This document shows, piece by piece, positions 60,905 to 61,080 of a stretch of DNA of 64,000 bases. The position numbers and the translations under genes are program-made. Numbering within the stretch: position 1 is the first letter of the stretch; every line of letters begins with the position of its first letter. The stretch is from Escherichia coli (GTDB lineage: Bacteria > Pseudomonadota > Gammaproteobacteria > Enterobacterales > Enterobacteriaceae), in NCBI RefSeq assembly GCF_017348835.2, contig NZ_CP071375.1; one strand, given 5' to 3'. The notes below the pieces were generated by a model. That model searched no databases. It worked only from the letters and a program-made list of their open reading frames with translations, and was not told where the DNA came from.

Positions 60905-61080
60905 GGGGTTATCCCCCGGCAATGTGTGGATGCCTGATGCGACGCTGGTGCGTCTTATCAGGCCTACGTCAGACAGCGCAATAGCCTGATTTAGCGTGAT
61001 TTTGTAGGTCGGATAAGGCGTTTACGCCGCATCCGACATCAACGCCTGATGCGACGCTTGCCGCGTCTTATCAGGCCTAT
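60905..61080. repeat. large REP/BIME cluster between gltP and yjcO
   Basis: at least four REP-like palindromes (gcctgatgcgacgc...gtcttatcaggcctac; ggataaggcgtttacgccgcatccg). Confidence 0.85.

Follow-up and report, generated by a model that had tools for sequence, protein, structure and literature searches.

The spacer between gltP and yjcO in Escherichia coli raises the question of what kind of repeat it holds, in how many copies, and what those copies might do. The stretch of DNA analysed here, referred to as the window, is 64 kb of the E. coli chromosome running from pgi to fdhF. It is colinear with strain PE164 (NZ_CP114128.1), from which it differs by one base at position 30678, and its gene map was obtained by transferring the annotation of that record. 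The resulting gene order is pgi ... malGFE, malK-lamB-malM ... acs, nrfA-G, gltP, yjcO, fdhF. Out of 5,426 complete E. coli genomes, 5,425 match a 1-kb query around the locus, and gltP and yjcO are annotated there. In the window gltP (59579-60892, plus strand) and yjcO (61082-61771, minus strand) are convergent and separated by a 189-bp spacer.

Read from gltP onwards, the spacer consists of a hairpin, a Z1 REP on the plus strand, a 36-nt L-type linker, an inverted Y REP on the minus strand, a 4-nt linker and a second Z1 REP on the plus strand. This amounts to 1.3 copies of a 113-bp unit with three REPs. The first Z1 copy (60931-60967, TGCCTGATGCGACGCTGGTGCGTCTTATCAGGCCTAC) is 97% identical to the Z1 consensus, scores 52.5 bits and folds into a hairpin of -11.9 kcal/mol (z = -4.7). 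The linker that follows it tail to tail (60968-61003) is unstructured (fold z = 0.16) and contains an internal 10-nt duplication, TAGCCTGATT/TAGCGTGATT, detected by Tandem Repeats Finder. The Y copy (61004-61038) is 91% identical to its consensus, scores 55.2 bits, forms a hairpin with z = -4.5 and carries a locus-specific compensatory T-A pair (GTCGGATG...CATCCGAC). It is joined head to head to the second Z1 copy by TCAA (61039-61042, read directly from the sequence), a linker of the same short 4-5-nt kind as those of the pgi|yjbE, malF|malE and yjcH|acs pairs, where it is 5 nt long. The second Z1 copy (61043-61080; 94% identity to consensus, 46.6 bits) ends in a CCTAT foot rather than CCTAC, one nucleotide away from the yjcO stop codon (61082-61084, minus strand), and the distance between the two direct Z1 copies is 112-113 bp. 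All three REPs fold with energies of -10.9 to -11.9 kcal/mol (z about -4.5 to -4.7), and the spacer as a whole gives z = -7.2 and -7.4 on its two strands. An inverted-repeat search of the spacer with exact 8-nt seeds reported none of these stems, as the conserved two-base mismatch of REPs interrupts them.

The first-pass annotation had counted four or more copies in 175 bp between these genes, where we find three REPs and one further hairpin to which the REP model does not respond. That hairpin (60899-60922, plus strand) starts 6 nt past the gltP stop codon, has the form TTGCTGGGG-TTAT-CCCCCGGCAA and folds as DNA with -9.3 kcal/mol (z = -4.8). Its stem is constant in all alleles examined while its loop varies, and the base of the stem, TGCCGG...CCGGCA, is Y-stem-like in most strains. 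We considered it as a fourth, decayed Y REP and rejected this, the REP covariance model being blind to it at E <= 10. The naRNA4 model gives it 47 bits, which is under threshold. There is no T-run downstream of it, and a scan of the gltP-yjcO spacer for intrinsic-terminator patterns gave nothing. The larger count fits the K-12 MG1655 allele, with 11 REPs in a 641-bp spacer, and not this window.

The whole window was surveyed for REPs in two ways, by BLAST with a consensus for each of the classes Y, Z1 and Z2 and by an unfiltered covariance-model search. A data-driven alignment groups the copies as the consensus sequences do; the covariance model was built from the window's own 15 REP copies. 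Both approaches arrive at 15 full REPs, spread over eight intergenic regions, so that the earlier statement of at least eight such regions holds, with eight as the exact number. Under the model the 15 copies score 33-59 bits, and the remaining matches (<=22 bits) are opposite-strand echoes. The REP head motif occurs 31 times in the window vs 8.0 +/- 2.8 in shuffled sequence and the tail motif 13 times vs 0.57 +/- 0.71. Every one of the 15 copies lies between genes, save for an overlap with one doubtful 47-aa ORF call.

Besides the three REPs at gltP|yjcO, the copies are distributed as follows. The pgi|yjbE spacer holds a BIME of two (575-651; Y on the minus strand at 575-609, Z1 on the plus strand at 615-651) next to a truncated Z-type head at 559-573. 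A single copy with Y-type arms and a long centre of Z1 length lies upstream of psiE (5310-5347, plus strand). The malF|malE BIME (10246-10372) has three copies, as had been claimed, namely a degenerate Y (10246-10280, minus), a Z1 (10286-10322, plus) and a Y (10338-10372, minus), and a single Y is found at lamB|malM (14475-14509, minus). At ubiA|plsB a pair (18994-19088) is made up of a Z2 (18994-19023, plus), an L-type linker and a Y (19054-19088, minus). The single Y at alr|tyrB, after alr (31983-32017, plus), is followed by an L-like segment with an exact IHF core match at 32033-32045. Finally, the yjcH|acs BIME (50399-50502) contains a Y (50399-50434, minus), a Z1 (50440-50476, plus) and a half-REP remnant (50489-50502).

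Some observations at these loci concern neighbouring features. Within the pgi-yjbE spacer, a short way downstream of the BIME, there is a match to the enterobacterial sRNA family STnc430 (714-863, minus strand, 68.6 bits). The REP upstream of psiE is unusually placed, in what appears to be a divergent promoter region, and forms the 3' end of a 47-aa "hypothetical protein" annotated in PE164 (WP_000487766.1; 5210-5353, plus strand), which is probably a spurious gene call. After ubiA, a hairpin at 18958-18985 (plus strand, AAAAAAGCCGGATGATCATCCGGCTTTCTT) has the stem of a Y REP (GCCGGATG/CATCCGGC) without its centre; with A and T runs on either side it resembles an intrinsic terminator, and the REP model scores it at 13.8 bits.

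The element is a dispersed repeat, the 1-kb query giving a median of 9 megablast matches per genome. Published annotations of K-12 list 355 REP loci per 4.64 Mb (PMC4550694, bioRxiv 10.1101/2024.07.17.603846) and a total of 584-697 REPs (PMC3333891, bioRxiv 10.1101/2024.07.17.603846). About 4.9 loci are accordingly expected in the window, and the eight observed do not significantly exceed the genome average (Poisson P(>=8) = 0.12), contrary to the description of the clusters as unusually dense. Nor does their density simply mark operon boundaries, as had been proposed, since three of the eight loci are internal to operons, namely malE-malF, lamB-malM and acs-yjcH, belonging to the operons malEFG, malK-lamB-malM and acs-yjcH-actP.

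The first-pass annotation had named sorting of the copies into REP classes by alignment as the check on its reading, which was to fall if they did not align in this way. Alignment of the 15 copies sorted them cleanly into Y, Z1 and Z2, and the identification of the repeats as REPs therefore stood. There are eight Y copies, one Y-arm variant (5310), five Z1 and one Z2. Y copies are 35 nt long with a short loop and have a G at position 5 paired with C. In the Z1 copies (37-38 nt) position 5 is a T paired with A and the inner stem is GACGC...GCGTC, and the single Z2 at 18994 is 30 nt long. A common hairpin is shared by all classes: 96.6% of the cells in the alignment of 15 copies pair, vs 28-41% in slid controls, and compensatory changes are present at 4 of 12 pairs, including the pair that separates the classes. 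The features that define REPs are a GTAG/CTAC foot and a two-base mismatch in the stem (PMC3333891). In all copies the stem contains the GC/TT internal mismatch (alignment columns 9-10 and 26-27). At gltP-yjcO the feet are CCTAC at 60963-60967 and GTAGG at 61004-61008, with one change from consensus in the CCTAT of the third copy. The copies are thus imperfect palindromes of 30-40 nt with the foot and mismatch of the family, assignable to Y, Z1 or Z2, extragenic and highly repeated.

REPs are grouped into BIMEs of several types. According to Ton-Hoang et al. 2012 (PMC3333891), BIME-1 consists of Z1 and Y with an L linker and occurs in single copy, BIME-2 consists of Z2 and Y with short linkers in tandem, and atypical BIMEs are chimeras of the two in multiple copies; the tandem number at a BIME locus differs between strains (PMC3333891). 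The gltP-yjcO element resembles BIME-1 in its Z1 (plus) and inverted Y (minus), joined tail to tail by a linker of about 36 nt. This linker aligns with those beside the Y REPs at ubiA|plsB and alr|tyrB and therefore belongs to the L family, of which it is a locus-specific variant. The element differs from BIME-1 in having an extra Z1, a degenerate IHF core and a unit that is repeated in tandem up to about 8 times in other strains, and so is not the single-copy arrangement by which BIME-1 is defined. It is not a BIME-2, because there is no Z2 and the partner REPs are Z1 copies of 37-38 nt rather than Z2 copies of 30 nt. A combination of Z1, Y, L and the short 4-nt linker, in tandem in other alleles of the locus, is what the definition of atypical BIMEs describes. 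We conclude with little doubt that the stretch is a classical enterobacterial REP/BIME element, made of 1.3 copies of a 113-bp unit and atypical by published definitions.

Another view of the same composition is that the locus serves as a protein site at the DNA level, a BIME-1 of the RIB/RIP type with IHF on the L linker and gyrase on the REPs that would manage supercoiling between the convergent transcription units. An IHF site is often present in the L linker of BIME-1, and gyrase binding has been described for BIME-2 and atypical BIMEs (PMC3333891, PMC2817692). The Z1-L-Y order is that of BIME-1, the linker is homologous to the other L-type linkers of the window, gltP and yjcO are convergent, and a weak candidate site resembling the IHF core is present at 60979-60991 (minus strand; AATCAGGCTATTG, one mismatch vs WATCAANNNNTTR). 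No exact match to the IHF core consensus was found in the gltP-yjcO linker, however, and one-mismatch cores are expected by chance at roughly one per 1.1 kb (79 in the window vs about 57 expected), so that the site in L stands at chance level. Moreover, the centre of the linker has AGCCTGAT in place of the TTATTGAAT of other L linkers, the core-like segment is deleted in the O157:H7 allele, and about half of E. coli genomes lack the L linker here altogether. We therefore regard this role as unlikely, and the IHF binding that the first-pass annotation ascribed to such elements has no clear support in the sequence of this linker.

The atypical BIME is also not new. An oligonucleotide from the K-12 gltP-yjcO BIME, B319, is a substrate of TnpA_REP in vitro, with cleavage at sites that include the weak site GACC|TACA (PMC3333891), and since the K-12 version has served as substrate of the REP-associated transposase the element was already known. 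The GACC|TACA site corresponds to the foot of the Y copy at gltP-yjcO. Window and MG1655 share the locus, its flanks, the 113-bp unit, the Y signature at GACC|TACA and the hairpin after gltP. They differ in that MG1655 has 5.3 units, 11 REPs and 641 bp against 1.3 units, 3 REPs and 189 bp in the window, and in the start of L, which is GTCAGA in MG1655 and GCCAGA in the window. We take the K-12 BIME to be, probably, EcoCyc REP321a-k, judging by the count of 11 from a to k. REP/BIME elements as such have been studied for some 40 years. The feature is thus right in kind, was over-counted and over-interpreted at first, and was known beforehand.

Comparison with other arrangements of REPs narrows the description further. 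The REPs of malE-malF, which are classical mRNA-stabilising REPs, contain the same head-to-head module of Y, short linker and Z1, also within the window, and differ in lying inside an operon and in having a tail-to-tail linker of 15 nt that is not of L type. REPIN-RAYT systems, in which REP doublets are associated with a single-copy Y1 transposase, are similar in that the doublets are inverted, and the majority of E. coli genomes carry rayT. The gltP-yjcO doublet, by contrast, mixes classes Y and Z1 and grows by tandem duplication in place rather than by dispersal. Megablast detected rayT in 3575 of the 5426 E. coli genomes and gave no match in the other third or so. REP321 has been predicted by RAREFAN to be RAYT-associated (bioRxiv 10.1101/2024.07.17.603846).

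The head-to-head pair at 61007-61077 (plus strand) matches Rfam family RF02564 (naRNA4) with 77.1 bits vs a gathering score of 59.5, both hairpins being aligned. Taken at face value this would make the Y-Z1 pair a gene for a nucleoid-associated non-coding RNA of the naRNA4 kind, an RNA that, with HU, links stretches of cruciform-forming DNA to one another and compacts the nucleoid. RNAs from REP325 do bind HU, and other REP loci contact one another (PMC4550694), which speaks for such a role. Any Y-Z pair will match RF02564, however, because the family was itself modelled on a BIME unit. In fact four Y-Z pairs in the window match it, the others at 578-648, 10249-10319 and 50402-50473, and two of the four are antisense to the operon around them (malE-malF and acs-yjcH). 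The source of naRNA4 is a different locus, yjdM-yjdN, with a linker 7 nt longer, and at gltP-yjcO the Y-Z1 pair is gone from many strains. A naRNA4-type gene is therefore very improbable here; from sequence comparison we read the match as homology between BIMEs and not as evidence for an sRNA gene. The two loci were also considered as one and the same, which was rejected, REP325 being located between yjdM and yjdN. REP325 is a BIME-2 and shares with gltP-yjcO the tandem inverted REP pairs, the short head-to-head linkers, the naRNA4 match and a copy number that varies between strains. It differs in that it is described as combining Y with Z2 in a 77-bp unit, at another locus, where gltP-yjcO has a Z1 partner, a second linker of L type and a 113-bp unit.

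The two direct Z1 copies 112-113 bp apart, and the regular 113-bp period of the K-12 allele, superficially recall a CRISPR-like array or some other repeat system that acquires spacers, a confusion that the first-pass annotation had warned of. That warning hardly applies, as the window has only the two direct copies and the would-be spacers of the long alleles are identical. The intervening segments are themselves repeated and near-identical between units, all five L linkers of MG1655 being the same, and the repeats belong to a family dispersed throughout the genome. No cas genes were found in the annotated 64 kb. With identical "spacers" and no cas genes in that interval a CRISPR array was rejected, its probability being negligible.

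The locus was also followed across genomes, with REPs in long alleles counted by a semi-global edit-distance scan. In MG1655 Tandem Repeats Finder reports a period of 113 bp repeated 5.3 times at 97% identity. Among the Escherichia genomes examined the number of REPs ranges from 1 to 16, in the series 1, 2, 3, 5, 8, 11, 14 and 16. The spacer measures 77 bp with one REP (strain 492), 147 bp with two (APEC O1), and 189 bp (window) or 177 bp (O157:H7, with a 12-nt deletion in L) with three. It extends to 302 bp with five (ET350), 488 bp with eight (AR_0081), 641 bp with 11 (MG1655), 827 bp with 14 (PBP5) and 944 bp with 16 (Z1323HEC0423). The window allele thus is at the short end of the range. 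In an evenly spaced sample of 59 chromosomal records, from which frequencies can be given as rough estimates, one REP was found in about 41%, three in about 10%, five in about 7% and longer arrays in about 39%. As some 41% of the sampled E. coli genomes keep just one REP, the extra copies are dispensable. The L linker is present at gltP-yjcO in 2637 of 5426 E. coli genomes with 1-8 copies (median 3), the copies so counted all falling in this spacer at the loci inspected, and many strains are without the Y-Z1 pair. Some of the copy-number differences among "complete" assemblies could be due to repeat collapse rather than biology.

The copies at the locus carry a common signature. GTCGG...CCGAC, with T-A in place of the canonical C-G, is present in 26 of 28 Y copies from eight strains, which argues for amplification of one founder unit in place and not for repeated insertions. 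Within a single background the array has also changed length: the K-12 derivative CETR3G40 has one unit fewer than MG1655, in agreement with the reported loss of part of "REP321" by strain J53 (PMC5968721). Beyond E. coli proper, a scan of species-representative genomes found the 113-bp unit between gltP and yjcO in three further genomes. Two of them, E. albertii and a divergent E. coli lineage, are built like the window, with three REPs, and in the third, Escherichia sp. E1V33, there are 10. As the unit occupies the same place in E. albertii, the element is older than the split between E. coli and E. albertii, and three REPs may, judging by these sequences, represent the ancestral state.

In E. 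albertii NBRC 107761 (7061-7256 of the retrieved locus) the Y REP, the short linker and the head of Z1 form 48 nt that are identical to E. coli, against 92.5% identity in the flanking gltP. Constraint or homogenisation may account for this, in a comparison that is biased because the locus was found by exact-match search. A 240-bp contig of a Pyxidicoccus caerfyrddinensis assembly (NZ_JAAIYA010000177.1, coverage 0.53) consists of two gltP-yjcO BIME units of K-12 type and, in a myxobacterium, is almost certainly E. coli contamination.

What the REPs might do here can be proposed by analogy, the functional steps being inferred from other loci, with malE-malF as the paradigm. They lie in the 3' regions of convergent gltP and yjcO, with no canonical intrinsic terminator between the two genes, and the sequence is able to form REP hairpins on either strand. 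If transcribed, the hairpins would act as 3'-end stem-loops that shield the upstream gltP or yjcO mRNA from 3'-to-5' exonucleases. They may also form a barrier to transcription, impeding read-through between the convergent genes. A rule that REPs within 15 nt of a stop codon dampen translation has been summarised in bioRxiv 10.1101/2024.07.17.603846, and the REP 1 nt past the yjcO stop codon could similarly dampen translation termination and lower yjcO translation. Copy number would change when the 113-bp direct repeats slip or recombine unequally and/or when the REP-associated tyrosine transposase RayT, which cuts the K-12 gltP-yjcO BIME in vitro, cleaves the DNA and transfers strands. A bolder proposal is that the array, old, fixed at its locus and hypervariable, is under selection for copy number, which would tune yjcO translation termination, gltP mRNA stability or nucleoid contacts of the HU/naRNA type, as opposed to neutral slippage; we hold this to be quite improbable.

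On the practical side, the gltP-yjcO array differs in length from strain to strain and for this reason gives rise to collapsed assemblies and to "mutations" that recur when strains are resequenced. In MG1655 (NC_000913.3, about 4,296,380; 2376-2390 of the retrieved locus) the last Y REP is missing two bases, reading GGCGTTTACCGCATCC vs GGCGTTTACGCCGCATCC in the other copies. This gap in the reference most simply explains a "+CG at 4,296,380, gltP/yjcO" variant that was reported at 100% frequency (PMC4330922). A "yjcO-gltP insertion" in 34 of 35 isolates, given without a coordinate in the paper (PMC6120903), may be the same discrepancy of the MG1655 reference. The boundary of an ampC amplicon has been mapped to gltP/yjcO (PMC12625342), and the array can act as an amplification junction. 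For annotation, REP/BIME elements should not be taken for CRISPR arrays or sRNA genes, the naRNA4 model firing on ordinary Y-Z pairs.

Several other features of the window were recorded along the way. A full-length match to the Hfq-binding sRNA SraL (RyjA; 153 bits) at 43024-43164 on the minus strand overlaps the end of soxR (42567-43031) and extends into the soxR-ghxP spacer. The selenocysteine insertion sequence SECIS_2 (80.7 bits) was found inside fdhF at 63546-63600 (minus strand); the ORF list breaks fdhF at this point (61865-63544), as an in-frame UGA selenocysteine codon would lead one to expect. Three stretches have a low GC content of 0.33-0.35 vs 0.51 for the window, at 15538-17568, 25061-26764 and 33404-34511. 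They contain a SopA-family gene, a DUF2713 gene with 30-nt tandem repeats (25414-25538) and a partial pseudogene between tyrB and aphA, and look like horizontally acquired or strain-variable inserts. The adjoining aphA (34512-35225, plus strand) is a pseudogene with an internal stop in the PE164 annotation.
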